From positions 13,602-77,601 of IMG/VR virus record IMGVR_UViG_3300031993_000048: a stretch of DNA of 64,000 bases, one strand, 5' to 3'. The position numbers and the translations under genes are program-made. The stretch comes from a virus. Its lineage: Duplodnaviria > Caudoviricetes. Shown in pieces: positions 4,907 to 52,586 of the stretch. How positions within the stretch are numbered: position 1 is the first letter of the stretch; each line of letters starts with the position of its first letter. The notes beneath the pieces are model-generated. The model made no database searches and had not been told where the DNA came from. It saw only the letters and a list, made by a program, of their open reading frames with translations.

Positions 4907-4907
4907 C

Positions 4908-21667: not shown

Positions 21668-21696
21668 TTGCGCGCGAGGCGCAGATGTGGTATCAT
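21668..21696 (+). promoter_or_regulatory. sigma70-like promoter for the capsid operon
   Basis: TTGCGC (21668-21673), 17 nt, TATCAT (21691-21696) with TGTGG extension; immediately after the terminator. Confidence 0.75.
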
Positions 21697-30247: not shown

Positions 30248-30258
30248 AGGAGGAACAC

Positions 30259-30642: not shown

Positions 30643-30799
30643 CCCCGACGAGCTGGCGGACCGCCGGTTCATCGAGAAGTGGAAACCGCGAAAGCCCCCT
30701 CCGGGATGGTCCCCGGAGGGGTGCAACATCCGCCGCTACACGAGGGTCGTCGGACTCCGCACCGTGTACGTCGAGGTGAGGAGCGGTCTCGCCAATTAG
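30599..30799 (+). CDS. Possible small protein (66 aa)
   Basis: Fills the gap before the promoter at 30804; overlaps the upstream gene by 44 nt; start uncertain. Confidence 0.35.
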   Translation: MTKRASTASTATSVDPDELADRRFIEKWKPRKPPPGWSPEGCNIRRYTRVVGLRTVYVEVRSGLAN

Positions 30800-30803
30800 G
30801 GGC

Positions 30804-30832
30804 TTCCACGCCCCGGCATATTGTGGTATAAT
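30804..30832 (+). promoter_or_regulatory. sigma70-like promoter for the giant gene
   Basis: TTCCAC (30804-30809), 17 nt, perfect TATAAT (30827-30832) with TGTGG extension. Confidence 0.75.
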
Positions 30833-30876: not shown

Positions 30877-33800
30877 ATGCCGAGAAACCCGTTTGCCGAC
30901 CCGTTCACGAACCCCGCCGACGCGGGCGAATCCCTTTTTGGGCGCGATGGCGCGATGGCGCCCGCCATGCCCCGGCTCGTGCCGGCCGCCGACGAGATCG
31001 CGGACTCGTCGCTCTCGATTTCTTCCGCCCCGGATCCCCTGGCGCCTCGCCTCGACGACGATGACGACGAGCCGGACGTTCCGCAGTTCCAGTCTCCGTA
31101 CAAGGGCCAGGACCTCCTGTCCGAACCCATGGACAAGGAGAAGGGGCCGACGGCGTTCCAGCGCAAGGAGATAAACTGGTCCGACGGCGGGGAGGACCTG
31201 ACCCGCCCGCGCCGCCGCAACGTCGCCCCCTCCGACTGGCTCGAGGTCGACTACCTGTTCGGGAAGAAGGAGGGCGCGTCGGGCAAGCCCGTCGAGGCCG
31301 CCAACGTGTTCGGGCGCCAGTTCACCCGCGACGAGCTCGAGCGCGACGAGGACGGCAGGAAGCTCCTCGGGCTCATGGAGTTCCGCCGGTCCGGCAAGGT
31401 CAACGAGGGCGGGGCGCTCGCCAACTTCGGCAAGGGGTTCTCCGACTGGGGCACCTCCGACATACCTTTCTACGGCTGGTTCGCCGACATCGGCACGACT
31501 GTCGGCGACGCCATCGAGATGTCGCGGACGATCCGCAAGCTCCAGGACGGTGGCGAGGTGACGCCGCGCGAGGCGATCCGCCTGCGCACGCACATGCTCC
31601 GGCAGGAGCTCGAGAGCCAGCGCACGATGGCGCACCAGGTCGGCTCCACCGTCCGCTCGTCCGTGACGCTGGGCGCGGAGATCCTCGCGTCGTCCGCGAT
31701 AGGCGCGGGCATCGGCGCGATGTTCGGGGGCGTGGGAGCCCCGGTCGGCGCGGCGGTCGGCGCGCTGTTCGCCCCGATCCGCTGGCTCTTCGGCATCGGC
31801 GGCACCGCCGCGAAGGCCGGCGCGCGCAAGGTCGTCAACGTCGGGATGAAGCAGCTCACCGCGAAGATGGCGAGGGACCTCACGGCGGCCGAGCTCAAGA
31901 CGATCGTCCGCACGGGGGCCGCGACCTACGGCGAGGAGGGGGTCCGCTCGCTCCTCCGCGAAGGCGTGAAGAAGGGGCTGCGCGGGCGCGAGCTGTACCA
32001 TTCGCTCGCGGGCGAGCTCCAGTACGCGACGAGGATGTCCGACCCCGGCAGGATGGCCGCCCGCGCCCTGTTCAGCGCCGACTACCGGCTCGCCCTCGAG
32101 GGCGGGCTCCGCGCCGCCGTGGAGCAGAAGGCGCTCGCCAAGACCCTCGTGAACGCGACGAAGGACGACATCGCGCGGCTGTCCGTCAGGGAGCGCGCGA
32201 GGCTCGTGAACGAGGGCATCCGCAAGATGGTCGCCAACAACGAGTGGAAGCCGTTCGTGCAGGACTTCGCCAAGGGCGTGATGGTGGGCGACCGCACGGC
32301 CGCCGTCGACTTCGTGCGGAAGGGCGTCCAGGAGGCGACAGGGCGCACGCTCGTCGCCCCGCAGTACGCGCAGCGCATCCTCGACATCGCCGCGTCCAGC
32401 GTGGCGAAGGACATGGAGCTCGCCGCCGGCAAGCTCGCCTTCGCCAACCCCGTCCGGTTCTTCAGGTACTTCGGCGAGCACGCCGCGCGCGGCCTCGTCC
32501 AGTCGGAGCACGGGCTCTTCGGTGGAGCCCCGACGATCGCGCACAGCGGGTTCACCACGTTCGCCCGCGGCAAGGACGCGCTCAAGGAGGGCATCGGCCG
32601 CGTGTTCATAGAGGCCCCGATCCAGGGCGCGCTCCAGTTCGTCGGCGGGCCGCTCGCGCTCTCCCCGATATTCGCCGCCGCGTCCGGCTACAGCCCGACC
32701 GACCTCACGGTGAAGGGGCAGCTCGGCTACCAGATCGACGCCCTGATCCGCGGCGACAGGGAGAAGATGGACACGGCGCGGCAGGCCGCGCTCGGCTCCG
32801 CGTTCGTCGAGTACGCGTCGGAGGCCGCCGGCCGGGGGCTCGGCGCGATGTTCGGCGGCGCGGTGGCGACCGCCGTCGGCAAGTCGCCGTCCGCCGTGGC
32901 CGAGGGCGCGAAGGCGATGGTGACTCCGGTCTCCCGCCGGATCGGCTCCGCGCTCGACCGTGCCGTGAAGGCCGTGTACGGCGAGGGCGACCTCCTGAAG
33001 AACGGCGTCGAGGGGTTCACGGGCCAGGCGTCCCGCGCCCTCCGCGGCCTCACGGGCCGCTCCGGCGTGAAGGCGTCGGTGGCCCGCGCCGTCCAGAACC
33101 GCACGATAGACGGGTTCGACGACGCCACGAAGACCGCGCTCGCCCGGAAGGGCGTGAAGGACTGGAAGGGCTTCCAGAAGTTCGTCGCCGCGTCCGCCGC
33201 CGACGGCAACCGCATGCGCGCCGGCCTCAACTACTTCGGCCTCAAGCTGATGGAGCGCGGCATGACCCCCGACAGGGTGGTGCAGTTCTTCCGCCAGGCC
33301 GGCTATTCCGGGATCCTCGAGGAGATGGGCGAGGAGCGCGTCGGCGACTTCATGCGCGGGCTCTTCGGGTTCGACGACACCGCGTCCGACGCGACGTGGA
33401 AGGACAAGCTCCGGTCGATGTTCTCCGGCATCACGGACTTCGACCAGCTCGCGACGGAGTTCATCGCCTTCGCGATCCCCGGCGCGATCCGCCGCGGCAC
33501 CATATCGGCGCAGTCGTGGCTCGCGAACGGCGCGGTCGGGCAGGCGAGGGCGGCGGCCCAGGGCCTGCGGTACATGACGGACCTCGGGCGCGGCAAGGTG
33601 TACGCCGCGGTCGGCGGGGTCACGCAGGAGGACAAGGAGCGGATCGAGCGCCGTCCGGCGGAGTCGGCCGCGATGCGGGACGGCGTGCTGGGGACGACGA
33701 AGGACAACCGGAGCCGGATGTCGGCGAACGCCGCGGCCATGGCGGCGAACGCGGCCGGGATCGAGCAGGCGGTGCGCGACGCCGGCGGCCTGTCCGAGCA

Positions 33801-36800: not shown

Positions 36801-39800
36801 GAGCGGCCAGCGCTTCGCGCAGGCGTACGGCTCGCTCACGGGCGAGCGCGACGCCGTGCTGTCGTCCGCGAGGGCCTTCGAGATGGCGAGGCGCTCCGAC
36901 CTCTGCGGCGGCGAGACCGCGGGCGGGACGGAGACGAGGGCCCGCATGAGCGACACGGTCGCGCCCCTCGCGAAGAGGGAGCTCCGCAGGCTCTCCGAGA
37001 CGCTGTCGGTCGCGGACATATCACCGGCGTCGCTCGAGAGCGCGGGGCAGGCGATGCGCTCGATAGCGACGAGCCTCATGGCGGGGGCGAAGGACAAGGC
37101 CCGCACGGAGGCCGCGCTCGTCCGCGAGTTCGAGGGCTGGCTTCTCGGGCGCGGGGTCTCCAAGGCGATCGCCGCCGAGATGGTCGCGGCGTTCGAGAGG
37201 GCCACGGTGCGCCCGATCGCGAAGAAGACCGACGAGGAGGCGAAGAACGAGGAGGCCGACGCGCAGAACGCGGAGACCGAGGAGATCGAGAACCGCGAGT
37301 CCACCAACGACCCGGACAACGAGCGGCGCGTCGGACAGTTCATAAACGACCAGAACATCATGGCCGTCTCCGGCTTCCTGAAGTTCATCATGCCCGCCGA
37401 GTGCGGGGACTCCGCGCCGACGTTCCTCCGGCTCCGCGCGGACCTCTCCCGCCCGGAGATGTACGGCGAGCTGGCGGGCGAGAGGGCGTCGTGGAAGGAG
37501 GACGTGGACGCGTTCGTAAGGATGCTCGGCGTCAACTCCGACCTGCGGAACATCGACAGGGCGCTCGCGTCCAACCTCGTGAACCTCTCGTCGCGCGAGG
37601 ACACCGACCGGATGCTCGACCGCGTCGCGACGCTCCTGTGGGAGAACGGGAGGCGCGACTACGCCCTCGCCGTCGCCGCGATCCGCAACGTCGATCCCGC
37701 CAACGGCGAGCGGAGCAAGATGCTCGAGAGGCTGTCGCAGGCGACGGCGGTCACGCCGATGCGCCTCGACCGCACCGGCCCGGCCAAGCCGTTCGGGATC
37801 GACTTCATCGGCTCGGGCGCGCGGGCGGACGTCGTGCCCGGCGTCGTGGCGTCCGGCTACACGTCGCTCTCCGAGACGGTGCTCAAGGGGATGTTCAAGG
37901 CGGACGGGTCGCTCGCGAAGGACGCGGGCGCCGCGCTCGCGAAGGTCGTCGCGTACGTCCGGTCCGACAGCTTCGCGTCGAAGCGGCTCGCCCCGATCCT
38001 CGGAACTCCGGTCAAGGTCGGCTTCGTCCACGTCACGTTCGACAAGGCGCTGTACGAGACGCTCGAGGCCGTCGCGAACGGCAAGGGCGCGACGACCCTG
38101 GCGGAATACACGGACGCCGTGCTCGCCGTCGCGGACATAATCAGGGCGCGCTCCGCGGCCGCCGCGGACGTCCTGGACGGAATCCTCGGGGCGGGCAGCC
38201 AGTACGCCCACATGCTCCGTTCCCCGTACGTCCTGTCCGAGGTCGTGCGCGTGGCGCTTTCGGCGTACAACATGAAGCGCGGTACGTCGTACGGGCGCAA
38301 CCTCCGCGAGGCCGCCGTGATGAAGCTCGTCAGGCTCGCCAACTACCTCGTGGCCGACCCGTCGCAGCGCGGCAAGGTGTCGTGGCAGACCAGCGTGCAG
38401 CGGTGCTCCGGCATCGTCGAGGACCTCGTCGTCGAACCGGTCGAGGGGCTGCTGCTCCGGCTCGGGGTCAACCCCGCGTCGACCACGCTCGAGGCCGACC
38501 TGGCGAAGGCCCTGGAGGGCAAGGACGCCGACTGGGTGCGCGACACCCTGCGCCAGATGGCGAAGGACAAGCTCGCGACGGACATGCACCTCGACTGCGG
38601 AGCCAACCCGGCGGAGGCGATAAGGAAGCGCGACAAGGCGGGGGACAAGCCCTGGACGGGCCTCAACAACGCCCCGACGTTCGTCCCCGGCGCGTACCGC
38701 TCCGCAAGCAACCTCGACGTCCTCGTGGAGGCGTACCTCGCCGGCGCGCCACGTTCCAGCGCGACGCTCGGCGGCCGCGCGGCGAGCGCCATAGAGGGCG
38801 CGAAGAACAAGTCCGTGCAGACTCTCCCCTCGATGCTCCCCGGGTTCGTGAGGTTCGCGAACAGCGTCCTGTGCCAGGCCTCCGGCGTCACCGACGAGCT
38901 TGCCGGGAACGGCAACCGCTGGCGGGACAGGTCGAATCCGATCGTGTCGTTCGTCGGCGCGAAGGACTCCGGCGGCAGGCTGCTTCGCCGCGAGTCGGTG
39001 GCGGGCGCGCTCCGCAGCGCGATCGACGCGGAGAACAGCGACCCCGAGTACGTGCCTACGCACGTCCTCGTGCCGTTCTTCCGCGCCGACAAGCCCGCGT
39101 GCTACGCCCTGCGCATACCGGTCGGCACGATGCGCGCGATGATCGAGGCGGCCGTCGGGAACGAGGAGGTCGTGCGCCAGCTTCCGGCCGATCTCGCGGC
39201 CGTCGTGGAGGAAGTCGCGAAGACGAAGGGCGAAGACCTGAAGGGCAAGGAGTACGTCGCCTACAAGAAGAAGTTCCACCAGGCGGCGTACGCCCTCGCC
39301 GCGTCCGCGCTCGGCCAGTCGCAGATCGACCCGAAGCGCGTCCCCGTCCTCTCGTCGTGCGGCCCGCTCATCTCGACCTACGTCGACAGGGGCGAGGGCA
39401 CCGACCCGAGGGCCGGCTGCTACTTCGTCTCGATGGTGGGAGGGTCGACGGGCGCGTCCATGATGGGCGGCTACATCACCGCCGGCGTTCTCCCGTCCCG
39501 CGTGTCGGGCATGGGCGAGGGATCGTGGAGCCAGGCGCAGAAGCTGCACATGTTCTCCGTGAAGCGCGGCGTCAACTTCAAGAAGGGCCAGGCGTCGGCG
39601 ATCGGCCTCGGCTTCTACGCCGACGGACGGTCGGACGACAGGTCGCGGACCAACGGCGAGATCGTCTCCAACCACGCCGTGCGGTTCGCCCAGCGGCAGG
39701 GCCGCCGGCAGCTCGAGGCGCTGCTCTCGCAGGAGTTCAAGGACGCGGGGCTCTCCGGCCAGAACCTTCTCGATCCGGTGCCGGCCCTCGAGGACGGCGC

Positions 39801-42800: not shown

Positions 42801-45800
42801 GATCGCCCGCGACCCCGCGCTGCGCCTCCAGGACCTGGTGGTGAAGGGCTTCTCCTCGCAGGTGGCGAACTGGCTCGACTCCACGGAAAACCTCCAGCTG
42901 GTCCTCGACGGGCAGCTCGGACGCAGGCCGTGGGACTTCGCGGCGGGGTCCGCCCTGCGCGACAACGCCGACCGGTTCGTCCATCTGATCGGAGCCGTGC
43001 GCGGCGTCGACCCCGCTCTCGTGCGCGCCATCGCGACGAAGACGACGACCGAGCAGGTCCCGCAGGGCGGGAAGGTCGCGGACCGGACGGTCGAGACGGC
43101 CTCCACGGAGACGCTCCTCCGCCGCATAGCGACCACGGTGGCCGTGTACGGGGACCTCGCCGCGACCGGAAGGGCGAAGGTCCCGGCGATCGCCCGGCTC
43201 CTCTCCTCGATACGCGTCGGGGACAACGGCGTCTCCCTTTCGCTCTCGTCGCGGGAAACCTCCGCCGACATCGAGACGCTCCGCGCCGGGTTCGACCTCC
43301 TCGCCGGCCAGGGCGGGGCGAAGGGCTACAGGATATACGAGCGCAACGAGGCGGGCGAGGCCGCGGACACGGGCCTGCGCGTGAGCGGCGCGGAGCTCGC
43401 GAAGCTCCTCGTCCTCCACGCGTCGCTCACGGGCACGTTCGGCGCGGCGCAGGACTACGTGACGCAGTCCAACCTCCCCGCCGTGTTCGGCGACGCGAGG
43501 CTCCGCTTCCTCGAGCGGTGCCGCCACGAGATCCTGGACACGGCCGAGATCGCGAGCGCCCTCGGGCTCGCGCCGGTCGACGTCGCGCGCACGAGCGCCT
43601 ACGACCTCTTCGGCGACGTCGAGGTCATCCGCACCATCGGGAGGGAGCAGGCGAGGGACGTGGAGCTGCCGTACCTGCGCGAGGAGCTCGCCGCCGCGAA
43701 GAAGGCCGACGACGCGTCGCGGACGCGCACGGTGCTGCGCCGGGGCAAGGCCGTCAAGAAGGGGCTCGAGGACGGCGAGGAGGCGTTCCAGAGCTTCCGC
43801 ACCTATCCCGCCCTGTCCGTCCTCCGCGGCGCCGCCGGGCTCACCCGCTACGGCGCGGAGGTCAACAACGCGCTCGAGGCCCGCCTCGGGCCGCACGACC
43901 TGTACCGCCGCTGGATGTCGGACGACCCGTTCGCGGAGCTGACGCAGGACGTCCCCGGGCCGGAGACGGTCGCGTCCGCCGAGATCGGCTTCCCGGTCGA
44001 GGAGAAGTCCCCGCGCGTCGACGCTTCGGCGGTGGACACGTCGTGGGCCGATCCGCTCGAGACCCGCACGGCGTTCCGCCGCCCGGGCGAGACGGAGGAC
44101 GCGTACGTGTTCCCGCGCCCCGCGCTGTCGGAGGACGGGAGCCGCGTCGTGTTCTCCACGGACGACATGGTCGACTCCCTCGAGAAGGCGTACAACGGGC
44201 TCCTCGACGCGCTCATCGACGACTCGAAGTCCAACGAGGCCCGCGCCGAGCGCAAGCGCCTGTACAACGAGCTGAACCCGACGAAGAAGATCCTGACGCG
44301 CAGGCCCGACCTCGTGGCGTCGGACCTCGCGGACATCCTCTCGGAGGCCGCGAGGCGCGACGCCGACGTGTACGACGCGCTCGACAAGATCGGCGACAGG
44401 CTCGCGGTCCACCCCGACCCGAGGATCGCGGCGGCCATCGACATCGCGAACTCCCGCCTCGGGGCGGAGGGGCGGAACGGGATCGCGCGTCCGTCGGCCC
44501 CTGCGACGAGGGCGAGCTTCATGGGAGGCGCGACGCGCGCCCGGGTCGAGGCCGACCCCCGCTCCGCGTTCGCGGACAGGGCGGAGCGCGTGGCGCCCGG
44601 CTTCACGTCGCAGCAGATGATGTCCGCGAAGACCGCTGTCGTCGGCGCGTTCGAGAAGGCGTTCGACGGCGCGGAGGTCACGGAGGTGCAGGGCAAGGAC
44701 GGCGCGGAGACGAACCTCCTCAAGGTGACGCGCCGGATCGCGAACGGCAGGCAGATCGTCACGTACGTGGCGATCGGCTCCAGAATGGGCGACACGCTCG
44801 GCATGGAGGCCGCCGCGGACTCGATCGCCGCGCTCCTCAACGCCCGGAACGGCGGGTCGCTCACGGGCGAGGCCGTCATACGCGCGTTCGGCGCGGCGAA
44901 CGTCGCCAGGCTCGCCGACATCATGCGGCGCACCGGCGCGCAGACCGGAGAGTCCGACACGACGAGCCTCGACTTCGCGCCGTTCATGTCGGGCGTGATC
45001 CGCCTTTCCGACAGGGCGGACTTCACGACGCTCTTCCACGAGTACTACCACCAGATGGTCGCCGTCTACAGGAAGCTCGGCATCCTCGACCCCGACACCG
45101 AGCGGAGGCTCAACGAGGACTTCGGCGGCGAGGAAGGCGCGGCGGAGATGTTCGGCCGCTACCTCTCCGGCGTCGAGGCGGGCGCGGACGACGTGGAGCT
45201 CCGGGACTTCATGGGCGCGGACGGGCTCACCGACGCGCACCTCCGGCTGTTCGCGGACTTCCGCCGCAGGGCCGCCGACATCGCGCGCGGCATGTTCCGC
45301 GGCATGGACGCCGACGGCGCCGCGCACTTCGTCGCGCTCCGCATCGTGCAAGGCGAGGTGACGGAAGAGGAGGCCCTGCGCATCGCCGAGCCGTCCGCGG
45401 CCGACGTGGAGAACCTCGAGCGCCAGCTCCAGGGGCTCGAGTCCCGCCCGCGCCTCGACGTCCTCACGGACGAGCAGATGGCGGACGCGATGTCGATCAG
45501 GGAGGCCGCGCTCGCCGCGCTGGCGTCCGGCGACGCCGGCGCGATCCGCGCGGCGGGGCTGCGCACGCTGGCGTTCTTCCAGAAGAAGACGCCGTCGGCT
45601 CCCGTGTCCAGGACGACGGACTCCGAAGCCCGGGACGAGGAGCGCGGGGAGCGCGCGGAGGACGTCGACATCTCCCGCGTCTCCGGGTTCATCAGGAGGG
45701 CGCTCCTCCGGTACGAGAGGGACGGCATGGGCGAGGACTTCGCCGAGTCGATGCGCCTGTATCGCGAGTTCCCCGTGGTCGGGGACGCGGCGAGCGGCCC

Positions 45801-48800
45801 GAACGCCGCCCTGTTCTACACCGTGCGCAGCTTCATCGCGCACGTCGCGGAGGCGGAGAACATCTCGATATACAGGGAAGACGGGTCGCTCACGCCCGCC
45901 GGCGAGAAGCTCATGTCGAGCGAGACCGTCGGCGAGCTCGCCATGCGCTTCGTCAACAACGCCACGCAGGAGCGCCGGTCGCAGGACCGCCGGCAGGGCG
46001 TGGAGTGGGCCTCGTCCGCGTGGGCGTTCAGCCGCGCGCTCGAGAGCGTCGCGCCCGGGACGTACGAGCGGTACTGCGCCCTGCTCGCCCGCAAGAGCGC
46101 GGAGGCGTTCCGCCGCCTCGGCGAGTCCCTGCTCGCCCGTCCCGGGAAGACGCAAGACGACATAGACGCCGCCAACGAGTTCATCGCGAAGTCCGGGGAG
46201 ATCGAGAACTTCGTCCGCCACGTGGCGAGGGGCGAGGACGTCCGCTCGCTGCTGCCGTTCGACGTCGAGTCCGGCGGAAACCTGCACGGCCTGTTCCTCG
46301 CGTACTTCACCGGAGGCGCGAGGTTCCAGCGGGACGAGGAGGGCGAATACCTCTACCCGAAGGGCCCGGTGCGCCCGTACTCGCGGGAGCTCGACCACAC
46401 GTCCCGCCTCGAGACCGGGGACCCGGCGCTCGATCCGCTCGTCGACCTCGCCTACAACTACGCGGCGCAGGCGTTCTCCGTCGCGGAGGCCGCGCGCAGC
46501 TACCGCAGGCAGGTGCTCGGCGAGGGCAAGGACGGGGAGGCCGCGGACGAGGAGCGCCCGGAGGGCGTCGGCGAGACCGCCGGCCCGGCGTCCATCTCGT
46601 CCGAGGAGGTCTCCGAGTCGACGAAGGGCCTCGAGGAGGCGCTGCCCCCGGACGCGCCGCTCGACGTCAACGCGTCCCCCGCGGCGACGGCGCCGTCCGA
46701 CTTCTTCGCGAAGGTCGACACGACGCTCACGACGCCGGAGTGGATCCTGGCGAACCCGGGCAAGTGGCTCGAGTCCGACATGCAGCGGAACCTGTCCGGC
46801 GCGTCCATGCGCGACATGATGACCGACCACGCCGTGAAGGCGGCGACGGAGCGGCACTACCGGCTCGCGATGGACTGGGTGCAGTTCTTCGGCATGGACA
46901 CGCACGTCGGCGACGGGGTGCGCAAGGTCGAGATCGTGGAGTCGAGGCTGGGCAGGAACGCCCAGGGCGACTTCTCGGTCTCGGAGGGGAACGCCCATTC
47001 CGTGATGCGCTTCTCGCAGACGCGGGGCGCGCTGTTCGGCGCGTTCGCGTGGCAGGAGAAGAGGGTCGGGGAGGCGCTCACGACCGACGACATCCGCGAG
47101 CTGCACGCGGTCGGGCGCCTCGTGAAGCTCATCGCGAACCGCCAGTCCGCGGACCTGCTCGGGATCGAGATCGGGCACCTCGCCGTGCCGGGCGCGGTCG
47201 AGATGCTGCGCAGGGACGACTACGCCGACTTCCTCTCGAGGGGGCGGCTCCTCGAGCGCGTCGCCGACTCGGGCTACCGCCTGAACGCCCTCGAGGACCT
47301 GCTGCGCCGGATCGTGGACGACGTCCCGAAGTCCGTCCTCGACGCCGGGTTCTACGACGCGGTCGTCGGGGCGCTCCGCAAGGCCGCGCTCCGGTCGGGC
47401 CCCGGAGGCGCGGAGCTTCCGCCGGAGGCCGTGAACGAGAACATGCTGCGCGCGCTCGAGAGGGCGGGCGTCGTCCACCGGTCGAAGGGCACCGGGCGCG
47501 CGGTCGTCTGCGTCTCGGCGAAGCGCATGCTCGACGCGTGGAACGCGTCGGACGCGAAGCGCAAGCTCCGGGACGCCGGGCGGCCGGAGAAGATGCTGAA
47601 CCCGTACTACTGGGCCGACAGGTTCGCGAGGGCCGCGAAGGACCTGAACAACGTCGCGGCGAAGTCCACGTACCTCACGCTCGGCGAGGGGTCGCGGTTC
47701 ACGCTCGCCGGCACGAGCCGCTTCTGGTGGCACGGCGGGACGGGCTCCCACAAGTTCCAGGTCGACGCGTACCAGAACGCGATCAGGGCGTTCGAGGGGA
47801 TGTCCCCGTCGAGCGTGGACGTCCTCCGGGCGAAGCAGTCGGAGCTCTTCGAGATCATCGAGGCGAGCCGCGACCCGTCGGTGCTGCGCCGCCAGGCGTT
47901 CTCGAAGAAGGGTGTCTCCCGCCTCTCCGACCGCGAGCTCCGCTACCTCGCCTACCTCATGGGGCTCACGACCCGCGGCGACGAGACGCGGTTCGACGCC
48001 GCGGGGTTCGCGCGCGACATCGCGGCGGGCCGGTACGAGACGTTCGACCGCGACCTCAAGGTGCCCTGCACCATCCGGCGCGACGCGACCGTGCTCGACA
48101 TCCGCCTCCAGATCGCGGAGCTCGTGTCGAGGAAGACGTTCTCCGAGAACCTCTCCGCGCTGACCGCCGAGGAGCGCCAGGACTACCTCAACGCGCAGAC
48201 CGCCGCCGACGAGCTCCGCGAGACGCTCTCGCGCGACGTGCCGGGGCGCGTGACCGCCCGCAGCGAGATGGAGGAGTTCGACCGCACCGGGCGTCTCGGC
48301 GACTCGCGCACCGCCGCGGAGTCGCTCATCGAGATGTGCAAGGAGCTGACGACCGCCGAGCGGTTCCGCGGATGCCTCGCGCAGATGCTCGCGGCGGTCT
48401 CCGCCGACGGCACGCCGTCGTTCGTCGTCGCCCCGACGGAGGCCGCGGTCGGCGTGGACCGCATGCCGGACGAGTACTGGGGCGCGCTCGCGCGCCACGT
48501 CGCGAGGTTCCTCGGGCGCAAGATCCCGACGATCGGCTACGACGAGGGGCTCTCCGGCGCGGAGAACATGCGCCGCATCCACAGGCAGCTCTCCGAGGGC
48601 GACCAGAAGCTGTACGGGAAGATGAGCGCGTCGAAGTACGGCGGGGGCCGGCTCTTCCAGGGCGACATCCTCTGCCGCCTGGACGACCGGGACGCCGCCG
48701 GGAACGTGGACGAGGCGACGAGGGCGCTCGGCGGAGAGGCCGCGTGCTACATGAAGCAGCTCCTGTCGGCGCTCCGCGCGCCGACGCAGAGCGCGGCGTG

Positions 48801-51800
48801 GCGCGTCCTCGACACCATGGCGAGCTGGTCGAAGATCTCGTCCGTCGGCTTCTCCGCGTTCTTCCAGATCGCGACCGCCTTCGAGTCCCCGACCGCCGCC
48901 GTCGGGTTCCTCCGCGCCCTCGCGGGCCAGGCCGAGTGGATCGGCAAGGCCGTCAGGAAGGCGACCGGCTCCGACGAGGTGTTCACCCGCGACCTCGTCC
49001 GGCTCCTCAACTCCAACGACCCGTTCGTGACGGAGGCGAGGGAGCTGTGCGACCTCGTCGGCATGCCGCTCGACCCGGCGCTCGACTTCACGAACGACCC
49101 GAACGACTCGAACCCCGTCCTCGGCCACGCGCAGGGCGTGAAGAGGCAGGTCGAGCAGGTCTCCGCGTTCGCGGAGCGCGCGCTCGGCAGGCGCGGCGGC
49201 AAGGCCGTCCGCAAGGCCCTCGAGTTCGGCTACCGCCACCCGACGGACTACACGTTCAACGTCGTCCTCAACGGCGTCAAGATGGCGGTCGTCATGCAGA
49301 CGGTCCGCCGCCTGCGCGAGGAGTGCCTGAAGGGCGGGCGCCCGTTCGACCTCGTGAAGGAGATGCGCAAGTACGGCGGCTACGTCAACGCCGAGATCGG
49401 CGGCATCGACCCCGCGCGCTACGCGTGGGCGACGCCCGGCATGCGCAAGCTCCTGTCGCTCGGCATGTTCTCGTGGCAGTGGACGGTCGGCGCGTGGAGC
49501 GCGGGCGGGGGCGAGGCGATCTCCGACCTCATATTCGGCGGGCACTCGTCCACGAAGGCGCTCCGCCGCCACGCGCTCCTGCGCTGGATCAGGATGTTCG
49601 GCATCGTGAAGTTCGGCGTGCCCGCCGTCCTCCAGGCCGGGATCAAGGTCCTCTCGATGCTGGGCCTCAAGGCGCTTCCGCCGGACCCCGACGACCCCGA
49701 GGACGGCCTCGAGCAGGAGGTCGACGAGATGCCGTGGTGGACGTTCAACAACGAGTCGAAGGCCGGCATGCTCGCGTTCGACGTGACCCCGCTCCTGAAG
49801 CTCGCGGCCCGCGTGCCGGGCATGAAGGAGATGAAGCGCGCGGACGTCCCGTACCTCTCGTGGGCGATCCCGGCGTACGTCGGCGGCGGGCGCAACACCA
49901 CCGGCAAGCGGCACTACTACATGCACTTCGGCAAGCAGTCGGACGAGTTCTGGCGCTGGTTCGAGAACCCGCTCGGGCAGTTCGTGTCGAAGCTCTCGAT
50001 CCCGCTCCAGAAGGGGCTCGAGGGATTCTTCGGAAGGCTCTCCCCGAACGGCTTCTCCAAGGGCTTCGCCGACAAGACGATGGTCGACCGGTGGTTCACG
50101 CTGTCGCTCGATCCCGACCAGTCGGCGCTCGCGAACTTCGTCCTCTCGCACTTCATGTCGTTCTCCGTGGAGGGCATGAAGGCGAACGCGGACGCCGGGT
50201 TCCTCGCCGCCGTGGGTCCGATGCGCATGGGGCAGTCGAAGCGCTCGACGATGCTCCGCATCGAGGACCGGCTCCAGCGCTTCGTCGAGGACGACCGCAC
50301 GGGCAACCCGTGGAGCAGCAGGAAGAACCGCCGCAAGTTCAACCTCATGTGCACGGACATCCTGCGCGAGGCGCAGCTGAACGGCGTGGACGTGACGACC
50401 ATCGTCTCCTCCGCCCTCGGCAACGTCGCGCACAGGGAGTACCAGAAGTTCTTCGAGGCGTTCCCGCCGAGCCTCGACGGGAAGCCGGACATCGAGAAGA
50501 TGCAGGACGCGCTGCGCGGCCTCACCCGCGTCGACCGCAAGGCGAAGGACATAAGGACGTGGGCCGTCGAGAAGTTCAAGGCCGCCGGCACGGACGTGAA
50601 GAGGAACAAGGCGTACTGGGCCGCGATGCGCGAGATGATCCGCGCCACGCAGGCGTCGCCCGTCGCGTTCGACTCGGCGGCGGCGGAGAGGCAGTTCGAC
50701 GCGTACCTCCTCCAGGCCGAGAAGGCGAAGAGGGCGACGCGGCTCGACGCGAACGGCGGCGAGGCGCTCTCCAACTTCCTCGCCACCGACGACGTGCCGG
50801 AGACGCTCTACGGCGTGGAGATCGTGACCGACGACCTCACCGAGGAGGACCGCGAGTTCTTCGAGGCGCACCCCGAGGCGGGCGGGTTCTACGACACGGA
50901 CGACGAGGGCGGAGGGGGCGAGCCCCCGACCGACGAGCCGCCTCCGACCGGCGCGTACAAGGGAGGCGACTCCCTTCTCGAGAAGGCGAGACGCCGGATC
51001 GGCGAGACGGGCGAGGTGCTCGACTTCGTCGGGGCCGGGGTCGAGCGCGCGCTCGCGAGGATCGCGGACAAGAACATCCCGGTCGTGAGCACGCTCGCCG
51101 ACGCCGTGGCGCAGCCCGCCGTGGTCGGCGCCCGGGCAGCCGTCGCGAACCTGACGAGCGGAGGCGGCAAGTACTACCGGCCGGAGACGCGTGACGAGAA
51201 GCACTTCTCGAAGGCCGCCCTGCGCGAGCTCGGCGAGTCCGTCAAGGGCATGCACGGGCGCGCGGCGGGCCGCGCCGACGGCATGGACAACGCCGCGCAG
51301 TTCAACCTCACGCAGACCGTCGGAGGATTCACCGTGAAGGACGGGGCCGTCACCGACAAGTTCGACATCAACCAGCGCTACCCCGGTGTGCCCGACGCGA
51401 TGACCTCCGTCGCCCGCGCCGTGCTGGGTCGCGAGGAGGATCCCGACGCCGGCAAGATAAGGACGTCGATCCCGCTGACCACGCTCGACCTCCACCTCGA
51501 CGCGAAGGGCGGCGAGACCGCGGACGACGAGTACGTCCGCCGGATCAACGCCGCCGTCGAGGACGCGATCCCGTTCGTGAAGGAACACGAGGGCTTCCGC
51601 GACAAGGCGTACCGGGACTCCGTCGGCAAGTGGACGATAGGCTACGGGCAGACGGAGATCGACGGACGCCCCGTCCGCGAGGACGACACGATAGACGAGG
51701 CCGCGGCCGCCGCGTTCGTCGCGGAGCGCATGAGGGAGAACGCCGTCGCGCTCCACAGGCAGAACCCGTGGACGCGGAACCTCTCGCAGGGCGCGCTCTC

Positions 51801-52011
51801 GGCGCTCTACGACGTCGCCTACAACCTCGGCGCGGGCGCGCTCTCGGAGAAGAGGTCGCCGAACCTCAACTACGAGGCGGGCTCCGCCGACATGGACTGG
51901 GATTCGATAGTGTGGCGCGAGCTTCCCACCTACGCCAGCGCGGGCGGGAAGCGCGTGCAGGGGCTCGTCAACCGGCGCAACGACGCCATAAGGAAATGGA
52001 GGACGCCATGA
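30877..52011 (+). CDS. Giant polyvalent virion protein (~7,044 aa): putative two-barrel RNA polymerase, zincin metallopeptidase and C-terminal GH24 lysozyme
   Basis: 21-kb ORF with uniform GC3-rich codons; AAGGAG RBS 9 nt before ATG 30877. Motifs: GSDMDGD (41389-41409), HRSP (41254-41265), FKKG (39577-39588), HEYYH (45037-45051) with downstream EEGAAEMF, and HEGFRDKAYRDSVGKWTIGYG...LVNRR (51586-51980). Confidence 0.85.
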   Translation: MPRNPFADPFTNPADAGESLFGRDGAMAPAMPRLVPAADEIADSSLSISSAPDPLAPRLDDDDDEPDVPQFQSPYKGQDLLSEPMDKEKGPTAFQRKEINWSDGGEDLTRPRRRNVAPSDWLEVDYLFGKKEGASGKPVEAANVFGRQFTRDELERDEDGRKLLGLMEFRRSGKVNEGGALANFGKGFSDWGTSDIPFYGWFADIGTTVGDAIEMSRTIRKLQDGGEVTPREAIRLRTHMLRQELESQRTMAHQVGSTVRSSVTLGAEILASSAIGAGIGAMFGGVGAPVGAAVGALFAPIRWLFGIGGTAAKAGARKVVNVGMKQLTAKMARDLTAAELKTIVRTGAATYGEEGVRSLLREGVKKGLRGRELYHSLAGELQYATRMSDPGRMAARALFSADYRLALEGGLRAAVEQKALAKTLVNATKDDIARLSVRERARLVNEGIRKMVANNEWKPFVQDFAKGVMVGDRTAAVDFVRKGVQEATGRTLVAPQYAQRILDIAASSVAKDMELAAGKLAFANPVRFFRYFGEHAARGLVQSEHGLFGGAPTIAHSGFTTFARGKDALKEGIGRVFIEAPIQGALQFVGGPLALSPIFAAASGYSPTDLTVKGQLGYQIDALIRGDREKMDTARQAALGSAFVEYASEAAGRGLGAMFGGAVATAVGKSPSAVAEGAKAMVTPVSRRIGSALDRAVKAVYGEGDLLKNGVEGFTGQASRALRGLTGRSGVKASVARAVQNRTIDGFDDATKTALARKGVKDWKGFQKFVAASAADGNRMRAGLNYFGLKLMERGMTPDRVVQFFRQAGYSGILEEMGEERVGDFMRGLFGFDDTASDATWKDKLRSMFSGITDFDQLATEFIAFAIPGAIRRGTISAQSWLANGAVGQARAAAQGLRYMTDLGRGKVYAAVGGVTQEDKERIERRPAESAAMRDGVLGTTKDNRSRMSANAAAMAANAAGIEQAVRDAGGLSEQGSSPDERAAYEAMLAPVLSAQGEGQMRAAMDELADEYLAAGDEATLERTMEQTGATAIFGEDGVDAIRREWRKGAGHEFSADSEIEASLADWKAFDAQSPTVSRREPGSVGEAVDDMCAQIAGMDRNASVTAGEEDRANGERDAMVADENARDVAVEDAMTLARYLGRGAVNSSREMSFGRRVMSRIVGMLGAASTGDLSLAATSPAAWLAQDEGVDKNLQMALLQCYSAGLMSGWAKMSAGQSEALRQAVGSVETAEELRQKLDALRRERRISDDIFDQLEEAGEETFRARVTEFMTAYMTASGVALVTRQDAVDMARSIVAKRHEKAGEAFERDEAWFAREDIAREVEAARSDVIDGVIATARNSLGYTTHRGAGDYGTYMTVDVAQAMKNGTSAEVLAAILDSPAFRGVARVQNVSGLSEHEREMAMSLLTSDVADLGAIAAIETEGEGNADRELTERELAEVNAAMRANPSDYTPEAFQNLARTFVRRVKLARENMRSTFSRLDDAGNRIVATIAPAAGGFAVVETDESTGATTRTEVAGSREDVEAQLASQGFALEEQRLVISQVKTFASSDATSLLFLRSGQDREAVRDIFKDSAGEIEDENVLPPWCRKERREPGGPLVWKYSDDQSDLAAEEFRRELALADEYERNGDSWMYYLAGTGASAKDRRARMAEAKKMHERVYGVSVEGASPTSGYESRARLELERLGIRRSSSVGTDLQQIGMPSDAYVMPVDAVNAKDVVVLTPDYFALGHGEALLRHGVRHALNAYVAGAGEEAELRNALLVEAYREFRGCIDDIVAEAETARGGRAEAKRLRAAYDELFPARADGLPSTLDLAKIASSSLFFSCDRGNYEDGNGFLHSAELSKAADRFRSTDIFMFFMSAVDEALGGKGLFDPARSSAGGLARYRAAFAPDFVKLREARKSAVFGGQSGEMKNPFVRGFRLRDGLTADEVRSGAGKWVVPDAAIGLKEPTSDRLRARDFDGKIGGYWGLYASSGQRFAQAYGSLTGERDAVLSSARAFEMARRSDLCGGETAGGTETRARMSDTVAPLAKRELRRLSETLSVADISPASLESAGQAMRSIATSLMAGAKDKARTEAALVREFEGWLLGRGVSKAIAAEMVAAFERATVRPIAKKTDEEAKNEEADAQNAETEEIENRESTNDPDNERRVGQFINDQNIMAVSGFLKFIMPAECGDSAPTFLRLRADLSRPEMYGELAGERASWKEDVDAFVRMLGVNSDLRNIDRALASNLVNLSSREDTDRMLDRVATLLWENGRRDYALAVAAIRNVDPANGERSKMLERLSQATAVTPMRLDRTGPAKPFGIDFIGSGARADVVPGVVASGYTSLSETVLKGMFKADGSLAKDAGAALAKVVAYVRSDSFASKRLAPILGTPVKVGFVHVTFDKALYETLEAVANGKGATTLAEYTDAVLAVADIIRARSAAAADVLDGILGAGSQYAHMLRSPYVLSEVVRVALSAYNMKRGTSYGRNLREAAVMKLVRLANYLVADPSQRGKVSWQTSVQRCSGIVEDLVVEPVEGLLLRLGVNPASTTLEADLAKALEGKDADWVRDTLRQMAKDKLATDMHLDCGANPAEAIRKRDKAGDKPWTGLNNAPTFVPGAYRSASNLDVLVEAYLAGAPRSSATLGGRAASAIEGAKNKSVQTLPSMLPGFVRFANSVLCQASGVTDELAGNGNRWRDRSNPIVSFVGAKDSGGRLLRRESVAGALRSAIDAENSDPEYVPTHVLVPFFRADKPACYALRIPVGTMRAMIEAAVGNEEVVRQLPADLAAVVEEVAKTKGEDLKGKEYVAYKKKFHQAAYALAASALGQSQIDPKRVPVLSSCGPLISTYVDRGEGTDPRAGCYFVSMVGGSTGASMMGGYITAGVLPSRVSGMGEGSWSQAQKLHMFSVKRGVNFKKGQASAIGLGFYADGRSDDRSRTNGEIVSNHAVRFAQRQGRRQLEALLSQEFKDAGLSGQNLLDPVPALEDGATDEQKAEHAELERIHDKAVDVANAFLANATIAVDDLETNKAGLFGSSCGVKVEKGATKIEVGGVTVAELADGKWRSSVPGFEFDFDGEGVKNGRALVMPVLAALAAKQGGRVDAAGIEGTWVRPDGSEFTGKLGDSGLLSEGETLACEIDKETGAARVVFFTRDMYGQVVASNANSSKASDHHVFPTNATRDHWMMEAITNATTPGGRNGSRRFIDAHAGYSLLRLATLAHNGELMRREMRRDQELVALLKAHPNDNQVRDAISDRARAFLEKQTLVGYYGNHGIMVPSGGKLVSGDEFAHTVEIEWAPGTTDYDRGCYKPATVYTREEAEAFGASRSWASGSVNADVEGFRYGLYFDEAALDSLLSQVAPDEQALARFARAGVDAAVAGRMARLAAFMEDLGGPLESQEQRTKRDALLACAYDYTGKKASENVRAKDIRFDDLFVRSWDGTTSFDYAAVDHEGRVSLHDGAKHLYLGGSVFHAHRSPSGNIAAACGTVRATCPYSFFPDGRIGRESKYALDPVTTATQGSDMDGDSASLQFYDYGAEDLVDAPAMRRFTDAVLGGADPFDVAKEMKWTVVQDGMEVVDPRVLRAVSRLVFSAQANNYREAATFHQGYTSVTALAGRKATGADFAVHYRENPPADGVFADYGFAGRHPVGTDAVFSEPFGAETLARFETLAGRKVLGRLSAEFKAKWFVEGKKMNKVLEAIVDEIRGKPKNSLLKMGEAADASDAASDSAKARGISVASQSTILRAIVTDLFGTGDRMTYDEAKGYSAVIDLIAHIDGVSNNLFDTLKKMFATRAGWTTSMLPFFLGRLAVDAREEAGRGGPVDSAFVLAEAAKFLEELTRVDGKIHTSATVAGRLASLLDPVRRDVAAARLAELYNGEQKDKGATVMTQYRGRPKTADEIINDFCRKRLEGEAYSMTRDAKAVYAAAYMTDAAHPVDESDYAVYDLVASSMDDSKALCRAVDYMKVAGKGLADVGRYALKAEGEETDETIARDPALRLQDLVVKGFSSQVANWLDSTENLQLVLDGQLGRRPWDFAAGSALRDNADRFVHLIGAVRGVDPALVRAIATKTTTEQVPQGGKVADRTVETASTETLLRRIATTVAVYGDLAATGRAKVPAIARLLSSIRVGDNGVSLSLSSRETSADIETLRAGFDLLAGQGGAKGYRIYERNEAGEAADTGLRVSGAELAKLLVLHASLTGTFGAAQDYVTQSNLPAVFGDARLRFLERCRHEILDTAEIASALGLAPVDVARTSAYDLFGDVEVIRTIGREQARDVELPYLREELAAAKKADDASRTRTVLRRGKAVKKGLEDGEEAFQSFRTYPALSVLRGAAGLTRYGAEVNNALEARLGPHDLYRRWMSDDPFAELTQDVPGPETVASAEIGFPVEEKSPRVDASAVDTSWADPLETRTAFRRPGETEDAYVFPRPALSEDGSRVVFSTDDMVDSLEKAYNGLLDALIDDSKSNEARAERKRLYNELNPTKKILTRRPDLVASDLADILSEAARRDADVYDALDKIGDRLAVHPDPRIAAAIDIANSRLGAEGRNGIARPSAPATRASFMGGATRARVEADPRSAFADRAERVAPGFTSQQMMSAKTAVVGAFEKAFDGAEVTEVQGKDGAETNLLKVTRRIANGRQIVTYVAIGSRMGDTLGMEAAADSIAALLNARNGGSLTGEAVIRAFGAANVARLADIMRRTGAQTGESDTTSLDFAPFMSGVIRLSDRADFTTLFHEYYHQMVAVYRKLGILDPDTERRLNEDFGGEEGAAEMFGRYLSGVEAGADDVELRDFMGADGLTDAHLRLFADFRRRAADIARGMFRGMDADGAAHFVALRIVQGEVTEEEALRIAEPSAADVENLERQLQGLESRPRLDVLTDEQMADAMSIREAALAALASGDAGAIRAAGLRTLAFFQKKTPSAPVSRTTDSEARDEERGERAEDVDISRVSGFIRRALLRYERDGMGEDFAESMRLYREFPVVGDAASGPNAALFYTVRSFIAHVAEAENISIYREDGSLTPAGEKLMSSETVGELAMRFVNNATQERRSQDRRQGVEWASSAWAFSRALESVAPGTYERYCALLARKSAEAFRRLGESLLARPGKTQDDIDAANEFIAKSGEIENFVRHVARGEDVRSLLPFDVESGGNLHGLFLAYFTGGARFQRDEEGEYLYPKGPVRPYSRELDHTSRLETGDPALDPLVDLAYNYAAQAFSVAEAARSYRRQVLGEGKDGEAADEERPEGVGETAGPASISSEEVSESTKGLEEALPPDAPLDVNASPAATAPSDFFAKVDTTLTTPEWILANPGKWLESDMQRNLSGASMRDMMTDHAVKAATERHYRLAMDWVQFFGMDTHVGDGVRKVEIVESRLGRNAQGDFSVSEGNAHSVMRFSQTRGALFGAFAWQEKRVGEALTTDDIRELHAVGRLVKLIANRQSADLLGIEIGHLAVPGAVEMLRRDDYADFLSRGRLLERVADSGYRLNALEDLLRRIVDDVPKSVLDAGFYDAVVGALRKAALRSGPGGAELPPEAVNENMLRALERAGVVHRSKGTGRAVVCVSAKRMLDAWNASDAKRKLRDAGRPEKMLNPYYWADRFARAAKDLNNVAAKSTYLTLGEGSRFTLAGTSRFWWHGGTGSHKFQVDAYQNAIRAFEGMSPSSVDVLRAKQSELFEIIEASRDPSVLRRQAFSKKGVSRLSDRELRYLAYLMGLTTRGDETRFDAAGFARDIAAGRYETFDRDLKVPCTIRRDATVLDIRLQIAELVSRKTFSENLSALTAEERQDYLNAQTAADELRETLSRDVPGRVTARSEMEEFDRTGRLGDSRTAAESLIEMCKELTTAERFRGCLAQMLAAVSADGTPSFVVAPTEAAVGVDRMPDEYWGALARHVARFLGRKIPTIGYDEGLSGAENMRRIHRQLSEGDQKLYGKMSASKYGGGRLFQGDILCRLDDRDAAGNVDEATRALGGEAACYMKQLLSALRAPTQSAAWRVLDTMASWSKISSVGFSAFFQIATAFESPTAAVGFLRALAGQAEWIGKAVRKATGSDEVFTRDLVRLLNSNDPFVTEARELCDLVGMPLDPALDFTNDPNDSNPVLGHAQGVKRQVEQVSAFAERALGRRGGKAVRKALEFGYRHPTDYTFNVVLNGVKMAVVMQTVRRLREECLKGGRPFDLVKEMRKYGGYVNAEIGGIDPARYAWATPGMRKLLSLGMFSWQWTVGAWSAGGGEAISDLIFGGHSSTKALRRHALLRWIRMFGIVKFGVPAVLQAGIKVLSMLGLKALPPDPDDPEDGLEQEVDEMPWWTFNNESKAGMLAFDVTPLLKLAARVPGMKEMKRADVPYLSWAIPAYVGGGRNTTGKRHYYMHFGKQSDEFWRWFENPLGQFVSKLSIPLQKGLEGFFGRLSPNGFSKGFADKTMVDRWFTLSLDPDQSALANFVLSHFMSFSVEGMKANADAGFLAAVGPMRMGQSKRSTMLRIEDRLQRFVEDDRTGNPWSSRKNRRKFNLMCTDILREAQLNGVDVTTIVSSALGNVAHREYQKFFEAFPPSLDGKPDIEKMQDALRGLTRVDRKAKDIRTWAVEKFKAAGTDVKRNKAYWAAMREMIRATQASPVAFDSAAAERQFDAYLLQAEKAKRATRLDANGGEALSNFLATDDVPETLYGVEIVTDDLTEEDREFFEAHPEAGGFYDTDDEGGGGEPPTDEPPPTGAYKGGDSLLEKARRRIGETGEVLDFVGAGVERALARIADKNIPVVSTLADAVAQPAVVGARAAVANLTSGGGKYYRPETRDEKHFSKAALRELGESVKGMHGRAAGRADGMDNAAQFNLTQTVGGFTVKDGAVTDKFDINQRYPGVPDAMTSVARAVLGREEDPDAGKIRTSIPLTTLDLHLDAKGGETADDEYVRRINAAVEDAIPFVKEHEGFRDKAYRDSVGKWTIGYGQTEIDGRPVREDDTIDEAAAAAFVAERMRENAVALHRQNPWTRNLSQGALSALYDVAYNLGAGALSEKRSPNLNYEAGSADMDWDSIVWRELPTYASAGGKRVQGLVNRRNDAIRKWRTP

Positions 52012-52586
52012 AAGCTCTCGCGCTTCTGCTGCTCTGCCCGCTCTGCCTCTTCGCGAAGACGTCGTACTACGACCTCGTGATGCTGCTGAAGGTCCCGGTC
52101 ATCCTGAACAACGCGCAGTCCCTCGGCTCGCGGCAGTACAGGCTCCAGCGCATCAGGGGCCGCGTGATCGTCGAGCACTTCCCGGACTCCGAGCCGGAGG
52201 TCTCGTTCGTCGACATGGTGAACAGGTCGCACAAATTGTCGAGCGGCGCGTACGTCACCTACAAGACGGTCGTGGACAAGGTCGGCTGGCACGCGGTCGG
52301 CAGCAACAAGACGGGCATATTCAGGAAGCCCTCGATATTCGTCTCCATCGAGGCGACGCCGAGCTACGCGCTCGCGGACGGGGAGGACAACACGCTCGTC
52401 GTCACGCTCTCCGGGAGCGGGACGAACGACAAGCGCGTGCACGGCTACGTCGCCGGACAGCTTGGCTGCGGATGCTACGCCTACGGGCACACGAGCCCGA
52501 CGAGGATCCTGGGGACCTGCACGGTCGTCGACACGGCGGCGGTGTGGGGCACGTTCACGATGAGAAAGACCATGGAGTGCGACTGA
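52008..52586 (+). CDS. Signal-peptide-bearing beta-rich protein (192 aa)
   Basis: ATGA overlap with the giant gene stop; MKALALLLLCPLCLFA signal; contains GCGC. Confidence 0.75.
   Translation: MKALALLLLCPLCLFAKTSYYDLVMLLKVPVILNNAQSLGSRQYRLQRIRGRVIVEHFPDSEPEVSFVDMVNRSHKLSSGAYVTYKTVVDKVGWHAVGSNKTGIFRKPSIFVSIEATPSYALADGEDNTLVVTLSGSGTNDKRVHGYVAGQLGCGCYAYGHTSPTRILGTCTVVDTAAVWGTFTMRKTMECD

Follow-up and report, generated by a model that had tools for sequence, protein, structure and literature searches.

Organisation of the giant gene

The DNA analysed here, referred to as the window, is a stretch of 64,000 nucleotides (nt) from a virus of the Caudoviricetes and forms the right-hand 64 kb of a 77.6-kb IMG/VR record (IMGVR_UViG_3300031993_000048; CheckV completeness 81%). 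One giant gene, at 30877-52011 on the plus strand, takes up 27% of this record and about 22% of a complete genome in its clade. It consists of one uninterrupted frame with an ATG start and 7,044 codons plus a stop, and its predicted product, the giant protein, has a size of roughly 0.76 MDa. According to a structure model, the central part of this protein folds as a single-chain two-barrel RNA polymerase (RNAP) with intact catalytic signatures. In a MAFFT alignment of 47 giants (the protein and its relatives), the chains are collinear from residue 1 to about 6,690 and diverge completely thereafter. The following division of the chain, in residues (aa) of the giant protein and window coordinates, is based on the conservation profile and on insertion hot spots.

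30822..30832, plus strand: extended -10-like motif TGTGGTATAAT, 45 nt upstream of the start codon
30877..52011, plus strand: giant gene, supported by its open frame, by the GC content at third codon positions (GC3), by independent contigs in other samples and by more than 50 collinear relatives
30877..39216, plus strand: N-terminal module (aa 1-2780), with conserved blocks at aa 86-311, 523-663, 783-883 and 1811-1907
31681..31803, plus strand: Gly/Ala-rich, glycine-zipper-like hydrophobic segment (aa 269-309), a candidate membrane-inserting segment
39334..42381, plus strand: predicted single-chain two-barrel RNA polymerase module (aa ~2820-3835)
39580..39921, plus strand: conserved lysines K2903 (KGQ) and K3015 (ETxKxG), candidate beta-subunit-type barrel lysines
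41257..41409, plus strand: beta-prime-type catalytic signature, R3461-S-P-S and, 46 residues on, G-S-D3507-M-D3509-G-D3511
between the polymerase module and the HExxH module: variable middle part
44854..45606, plus strand: zincin-like module (aa ~4660-4910), flanked by insertion hot spots
aa ~4920-5780: further part of the chain
48235..50931, plus strand: most conserved region (aa 5787-6685), almost all-helical, containing aa 6246-6265 and ending in EFFxxHPEAGGFYDxGD
50932..51564, plus strand: end of the core, then the acidic linker GGGGEPPTDEPPPTG (Gly/Pro/Glu) and a sub-module, about 200 aa long, without known family
51565..51984, plus strand: GH24 (T4-type) lysozyme (aa ~6902-7035), Pfam PF00959

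The GC content at codon positions 1, 2 and 3 is about 0.67, 0.49 and 0.97 in each 1.5-kb slice of the gene, and GC3 stays at 0.95-0.99 along its length in the reported frame only. Two other frames across the same stretch are open for 6,316 and 4,911 codons; since the coding GC3 signature is restricted to the reported frame, these are considered by-products of a GC content of 70%. The ATG at 30877 is preceded by AAGGAG at 9 nt upstream and agrees with the conserved N-terminus MxxNPFxDPFT of the relatives; an alternative in-frame TTG at 30832 would yield 7,059 codons. The 21.1-kb single open reading frame (ORF) described in an earlier interpretation made from the letters of the window (the sequence-only reading) is therefore borne out by its 7,044 open codons, its coding GC3 and its collinear homologues. 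The giant protein contains 32 cysteines, none of them terminal. Self-BLAST revealed no internal repeats in it, and a Chou-Fasman-type secondary-structure profile did not distinguish a helical 'ruler' from globular regions.

The polymerase module

The model of the polymerase module comprises a pair of domains of the double-psi beta-barrel (DPBB) type, a connector and a bridge-helix region, arranged as in known two-barrel RNA polymerases. Its closest structure is the virion RNA polymerase gp66 of Cellulophaga phage phi14:2 (PDB 6VR4), which corresponds to gp077 of the GenBank record. An R-x-P-S motif followed by NADFDGD is the pattern of the beta-prime barrel in cellular RNA polymerases, and the counterpart of the latter in the giant protein is DMDGD at aa 3507-3511 (nt 41395), the sole coding-frame DxD[GIV]D of the 77.6-kb record. 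None of the 47 aligned giants and none of six IMG/VR relatives departs from R-x-P-S or G-x-D-x-D-G-D, the catalytic residues being retained while overall identity across the family falls to 20-30%. The lysines K2903 and K3015 are likewise invariant or nearly so, both among the 47 relatives and the six from IMG/VR and in alignments A1, A2 and A5. They fall where the module aligns with the first barrel of 6VR4, and we infer that they belong to this barrel as candidate counterparts of its lysines. The RNAP-like core recognised in the sequence-only reading thus finds support both in the two-barrel fold model and in the invariant catalytic signatures. A search for the T7-like polymerase family PF00940 gave no match in this and four related genomes; the control genomes were equally silent, so that this result is uninformative.

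Conservation of the fusion

The stretch is present in cattle, goat and other animal-gut metagenomes of 14 studies. In another cattle-gut sample, a single 18.4-kb contig spans positions 31501-48868 with 94 substitutions and no gaps, and in a second independent sample overlapping contigs tile the whole 20 kb compared. Misassembly of separate genes, an objection already raised in the sequence-only reading, is countered by these independent, gap-free contigs: the fusion is real. Contig 'joints' over the gene were considered as possible rearrangements and rejected, their sides being only 20-39 nt long and taken to stem from other organisms or from repeats. Sample X4 has a contig word depth of about 46-fold over the gene; its long contig ends at 48868, and depth falls from about 47 to 1-7 until about 50.7 kb (48842-50700). 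Other samples continue through this part, and in the X4 strain the conserved C-terminal module has probably diverged. The public runs listed with the stretch include no RNA dataset and are uninformative on expression.

A search of 5.8 billion proteins identified 39 protein clusters of 6,300-7,700 aa that are collinear with the giant protein, and an exhaustive HMMER search with the polymerase region returned the same giants and, besides them, a small number of short proteins or fragments. Collinear frames of 6,200-7,225 aa are present on six IMG/VR contigs (90-100 kb, 65-71% GC); these loci were retrieved with an alignment as query, a single-sequence query having returned nothing. Five of the six genomes are 94-100% complete, and their large terminase is 53-61% identical to that of the window phage. 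Altogether the relatives number more than 50, with a size range of 6,200-7,700 aa. The fusion is present in the 47 aligned giants and in the six IMG/VR genomes, and no split form was found among proteins of 500-1,580 aa. It is universal in a coherent clade, which answers the question of its conservation posed by the sequence-only reading. Two shorter relatives, P0049 (3,024 aa) and P0051 (2,768 aa), lie on contigs of about 9 kb without context, and P0051 has no PDB match. Residues 2401-5400 of the giant protein have no tblastn match among GenBank phages.

Other modules of the giant protein

When the giant protein was scanned in nine tiles, Pfam and PHROG yielded the lysozyme and two weak matches on the hydrophobic segment and nothing else, and a PDB sequence search returned lysozymes only. 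The lysozyme itself, the terminal muramidase of the sequence-only reading, is confirmed: it matches PF00959 at 3e-24 (86.2 bits against a cut-off of 22.3), a PHROG endolysin at 1.5e-31 and PDB endolysins down to 7e-9, and the GH24 catalytic triad E6905-x8-D6914-x5-T6920 is intact. Past the conserved core, the relatives hold 0-530 variable residues, either carrying other modules or ending at the core motif; the start of the sub-module of about 200 aa is common to P0023 and P0026. The GH24 domain, which follows a Pro/Glu linker, is an optional module.

The model of the conserved C-terminal module is almost all-helical (predicted local distance difference test, pLDDT, 67.6; predicted template modelling score, pTM, 0.43) and has no meaningful match in the PDB. 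Its only strong match in BFVD is piece 4 of UniProt A0A516MBM4 (E 2e-18, 19% identity), an unannotated viral protein of at least about 5,000 aa that is stored in pieces. The polymerase model has its best structural match in piece 2 of the same protein (E 3.5e-4). Since two pieces of one protein head the lists of two separate models, A0A516MBM4 is a distant full-length relative already present in UniProt. Weaker fold matches of the C-terminal module are to 'large polyvalent protein associated domain' (LPD) proteins (E about 4e-3).

Of the two membrane regions proposed from the letters alone, the N-terminal one is credible. The segment at aa 269-309 reaches a Kyte-Doolittle hydropathy of 1.64 (19-residue window), and a hydrophobic segment occupies the aligned position in most of the 47 relatives, being missing from the most divergent ones. 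Family matches restricted to this segment (DUF6861 at 1.6e-5, below cut-off, and a tape-measure PHROG at 6.5e-4) are weak and compositional. The second region, near 49400-49680, is only mildly hydrophobic (hydropathy 1.56 at aa 6246-6265, within a 40-residue model helix) and, although it recurs in relatives, is a weakly hydrophobic helix and not a clear membrane segment. The remainder of the N-terminal module belongs to no family recognised by Pfam or PHROG, and a language-model protein atlas returned for aa 86-900 viral hypothetical proteins only, with low recognition.

The zincin-like module contains HEYYH at aa 4721-4725 (nt 45037-45051) and, about 27 residues downstream, EEGAAEMF. The motif HEY[FY/G]H is found in 46 of the 47 giants, and its H, E and H, together with the E, E and A of the second motif, are invariant in the seven-member alignment A3, which includes relatives at about 20% identity. 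The conserved EExAAExF, some 27 aa past HEY[FY]H, supplies a downstream glutamate as candidate third zinc ligand. No Pfam family was detected at E <=10 in any of the seven members, a profile search of PDB sequences returned nothing relevant, and the language-model atlas gave weak leads only (LPD, MuF and ART 'polyvalent' domains). The zincin protease of the sequence-only reading hence retains its conserved HEYYH...EE motif but gains no sequence match in Pfam or the PDB.

The N-terminal module ends at an insertion hot spot, at aa ~2783, where relatives hold extra domains. Their inserts, of 110-560 aa, sit at aa ~2783, 4622-4624 and 4915-4921 in the numbering of the window protein. They were observed in P0007, P0010, P0011, P0012, P0018, P0033 and P0034, some of the differences lying at the C-terminus. 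Precomputed Pfam labels in these relatives include NADAR (PF08719), RadC (PF04002), PF08902, PF08010 and a DUF1848-type domain, and insert sizes suggest which domain occupies which site. The sites resemble 'cargo slots' for anti-defence or accessory enzymes.

Upstream signals and neighbouring genes

The window contains three plus-strand copies of the 11-mer TGTGGTATMAT (chance expectation 0.05), at 15675-15685, 21686-21696 and 30822-30832, each preceding a gene group. The last of these, TGTGGTATAAT, is likely, judging from its sequence, to be a late promoter element for the host RNAP. It is the candidate for the gene's own promoter named in the sequence-only reading; a complete -35/-10 site was not detected by a generic sigma-70 scan. 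A GC-rich inverted repeat at 30690-30722 (CCCCTCCGGG ... CCCCGGAGGGG) separates the promoter-like motif from the gene before it; the repeat lacks a T run and was hence missed by the terminator scan.

The giant gene belongs to a one-directional block. The large terminase (PHROG 1.2e-7) is encoded on the same strand, 22.7 kb upstream, and the block ends with fibre-like genes after the giant gene, where the strand switches. Within the block, a protein of 1,063 aa with three InlB B-repeat (Flg_new_2) domains is encoded at 12468-15656, and a downstream protein with a YadA-head repeat at 52639-54426; both are likely to be adhesin-like fibres, and their domains hint at the type of host envelope. Directly past the giant gene lies a 189-aa ORF (52017-52583), which starts with a hydrophobic leader that contains Cys (LALLLLCPLCLF). 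It shares 61% identity with the ORF at the equivalent position in the relative L008 and is a conserved partner. Just upstream, a small ORF (30247-30639) encodes an N-terminal hydrophobic helix and CxDCxDC at its end; no counterpart turned up in the short flanks available upstream of the gene in relatives. An unusual neighbour, directly upstream of the large terminase, is a papain-family cysteine peptidase at 5392-6204 (Peptidase_C1 2e-9; PHROG peptidase 4e-10), which could be a maturation or processing protease and a candidate cutter of the giant protein.

Interpretation

The interpretation that we favour, with rather better than even confidence, is that the giant protein is a virion-packaged, injected protein of the crAss type, in which the whole 'transcription block' of crAss-like phages is carried by one gene. 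The established elements are the gene, the polymerase fold with its catalytic signature, the lysozyme and a modular, conserved architecture; by analogy, the protein would be packaged, injected and enzymatically active, would transcribe early genes and may be cleaved. It would be made late, packed in the particle and injected with the DNA. The swappable C-terminal wall hydrolase, here GH24 on a flexible Pro/Glu linker, would first open the peptidoglycan, and the N-terminal glycine-zipper-like segment would then aid entry into or crossing of the membrane. The central two-barrel polymerase would next transcribe the first phage genes without the host enzyme, and host RNA polymerase would finally read the late genes, including the giant gene, from TGnTATAAT-type promoters. 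The HExxH...E module would cut the giant protein or a host target, or would be a second wall-degrading activity.

Several observations support this reading. The gene is real and the fusion universal in the clade, and a fusion of three such proteins has been published for some crAss-like phages. The layout and motif spacing are collinear with crAss blocks. The gene lies on the same strand as the terminase and downstream of it, in a block ending in fibre-like genes. The design of the C-terminal end, in which a core motif and a Pro/Glu linker are followed by a lysozyme, another module or nothing, is like that of virion lysins. The extended -10 motif that recurs in the window is in keeping with host RNAP transcribing the gene late. 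Moreover, accessory domains occur at fixed hot spots, a common trait of injected polyvalent proteins (PMC5512222).

Other results weigh against it. When the polymerase profile was compared using hhalign, neither phi14:2 gp66 (probability 0.05%) nor an 8-sequence crAss core profile (probability 0.5%, E 0.12) gave a significant match, and the proposed link to crAss polymerases is structural only, through the model. Position 4 of the catalytic motif is Gly in all 47 giants, unlike the Ile or Val reported for all crAss-like polymerases (bioRxiv 10.1101/2020.03.07.982082); the crAss loci fetched here read DFD[IV]D or DYDID. The zincin is a probable one, by its motif. No portal, capsid or tail gene was recognised among the neighbours by PHROG, Pfam or PDB sequence searches, so that a podovirus-like or crAss-like particle is not established; the unrecognised neighbours include 8206-11290, 16822-19476, 20219-21592, 27776-30244 and 52017-52583. 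A tblastn search of about 50,000 GenBank phage records gave no match for the large terminase. Roughly 5,000 of the 7,044 residues are without an assigned fold, and the clade is known from sequences alone. On the other hand, crAss polymerases themselves have been reported as extremely divergent, and non-significant profile comparisons therefore leave room for a distant common origin.

The main rival is a tape-measure fusion like gp96 of Thermus phage P23-45, which would be stretched out along the inside of the tail tube, leave it first, make a channel through the membrane and transcribe the entering DNA. This is possible, if clearly the less probable arrangement. Like the giant protein, gp96 has a two-barrel RNAP with Gly at position 4 (DFDGD); it combines this with membrane and metallopeptidase domains. 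Tape measures often carry C-terminal lytic domains and hydrophobic segments, both of which are found here; the glycine-rich hydrophobic segment has a weak match to a tape-measure PHROG (6.5e-4), and fibre-like genes lie downstream of the giant gene. Against this, the polymerase sits in the middle of the chain, the motif spacing is crAss-like, and the fold match is much closer to the capsid-packaged crAss enzyme.

A more doubtful proposal is that the clade represents an independent lineage of two-barrel polymerases, characterised by the cellular-type DxDGD motif and by the lack of a sequence link to Crassvirales, in which ejection machinery and polymerase form one uncleaved chain of 0.76 MDa. 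Such a chain might be anchored in the envelope by its hydrophobic segment and its wall-binding end, and the polymerase might pull the genome in by transcribing it, thus coupling entry with first transcription.

It is improbable that the protein is not packaged at all and acts as an intracellular multi-enzyme protein that transcribes or primes phage DNA after infection, its lysozyme acting at lysis. Non-virion two-barrel polymerases of the P23-45 gp64 type do exist, GH24 domains are mostly endolysins, and packaging is argued here from analogy. However, the gene occupies a late-operon position beside structural and fibre genes, and the nearest structural and architectural relatives of its product are proteins found in virions. 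Moreover, endolysins are small free proteins and not the last 2% of a 0.76-MDa chain, and the C-terminal lytic module is optional or replaced in relatives.

A further alternative concerns activity, not location, and may overlap with the others: the two-barrel module might be no DNA-dependent transcriptase, being either a dead scaffold or an RNA-dependent or primer-making polymerase, roles of the latter kind having first been assumed for the eukaryotic relative QDE-1. This seems very unlikely, the closest structure being a proven DNA-dependent enzyme and the strict conservation of the three Asp, the R-x-P-S loop and the lysines at 20-30% identity indicating an active site under selection. Finally, an artefact, by chimeric assembly or by a chance open frame in 70% GC DNA, where very long spurious frames do arise and two other frames are open here too, can in practice be dismissed in view of the GC3 of 0.95-0.99 confined to the reported frame, the independent contigs, the more than 50 full-length homologues with their invariant motifs and the two confident folds or domains within the protein.

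Phages that bring their own RNA polymerase (N4, crAss-like phages, P23-45 and jumbo phages) are models of takeover without host transcription, and the crAss-type enzyme is the proposed ancestor of the eukaryotic RNA interference polymerases. To these the present analysis adds a widespread ruminant-gut phage clade, with at least 50 variants in many cattle, goat and other gut studies, in which one polymerase-bearing gene takes 22-27% of the genome and the marker genes match no GenBank phage. If the favoured interpretation is correct, crAss-type polymerases would extend beyond low-GC phages of Bacteroidota. Because every member keeps the fusion while relatives insert or swap domains at fixed sites, the family could serve as a natural series for the parts needed in packaging, ejection and transcription, for whole versus cleaved action and for the role of the roughly 5,000 unassigned residues.

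Comparison with known systems

The crAss block typically comprises two or three adjacent giants (an N-terminal partner, the virion RNAP and a zincin-bearing protein), whereas a single ORF is found here in all relatives. In phi14:2 the adjacent genes encode gp078 (1,797 aa), gp077 (2,180 aa, the RNAP, with DFDID at 1361) and gp076 (1,421 aa, with HEIMH at 245), all three recorded in GenBank as structural by mass spectrometry. Were this block a single chain, about 3,160 aa would precede DxDxD and about 1,060 aa would separate it from HExxH; the corresponding distances in the giant protein are 3,506 and 1,214. For some crAss-like phages, one huge polyprotein uniting the virion polymerase with the zincin protein and a third virion protein has been reported (bioRxiv 10.1101/2020.03.07.982082). 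The differences are equally clear: there is no detectable sequence or profile similarity, and the motif is DxDGD instead of DFD[I/V]D. Additional features of the giant protein are its conserved helical module, about 900 aa in length, and an exchangeable hydrolase at the C-terminus. The clade of the window has 65-71% GC, comes from the ruminant gut and has a terminase unrelated to those of GenBank phages at the tblastn level.

A close layout is found in the Flavobacterium phage Fpv2 (Fipvunavirus; genome of about 89 kb): its gp33, annotated as a 'virion structural protein', is 4,401 aa long, with DYDID at 3222 and HEVIH at 4179, compared with 3507 and 4721 in the giant protein. The product of the next gene, gp34 (1,596 aa), could match a part that is fused in the giant protein. 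Fpv2 differs in its use of two genes, in the Ile at motif position 4 and in having no lysozyme noted, and it was located via phi14:2, not via the giant protein. Human-gut crAss-like phages have polymerase giants of 4,491-4,551 aa beside genes of 1,803-2,007 aa (4,551 and 2,007 aa in cr1_1), and in the prototype crAssphage the zincin protein precedes the polymerase. The 4,491-aa and 1,803-aa genes of cr4_1 (L014, NC_055893) contain 38 and 18 in-frame stops under table 11, which is consistent with the stop-codon recoding known in some crAss-like phages; no recoding of this type was found in the window's clade.

P23-45 gp96 is a second route to the same domain set. It is a tape measure of 5,002 aa that combines an RNAP with membrane and metallopeptidase domains, the latter two described as 'characteristic of many TMPs' (tape-measure proteins), the same phage encoding a non-virion two-barrel polymerase, gp64 (bioRxiv 10.1101/2022.12.01.518664). 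In this giant virion protein a two-barrel RNAP (DFDGD; PDB 8H2M/8H2N) is joined to membrane segments and a metallopeptidase, which resembles the make-up proposed for the giant protein. After its delivery at infection it transcribes the first genes; its polymerase is N-terminal, as opposed to mid-chain in the giant protein. Coliphage N4 offers a giant encapsidated polymerase, gp50 (about 3,500 aa), which is expelled with gp51 and gp52 to start transcription. Unlike the giant protein, it is a T7-like single-subunit polymerase of unrelated fold, and the ejection proteins are encoded by separate genes.

With the polyvalent proteins of phages and conjugative elements (Iyer et al. 2017, PMC5512222), the giant protein would also share the presence of many enzymatic domains on one injected chain, among them a peptidoglycan hydrolase and a zincin-like metallopeptidase motif. 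Internal virion proteins of the T7 type that bear lytic domains (gp16) are likewise multi-domain injected chains. The variation of accessory domains between relatives of the giant protein adds to the likeness with the polyvalent type. It differs from polyvalent proteins in having no Pfam LPD or MPTase family by sequence, in its far larger size and in its polymerase core.

The sequence-only reading is thus supported in part. Its suggestion that the locus encodes an undescribed entry-plus-transcription machine was overstated, crAss-like polyprotein fusions and P23-45 gp96 having already been published. Giant virion-delivered proteins with a two-barrel polymerase are known; the novelty lies in the lineage, in the size and in the completeness of the fusion.

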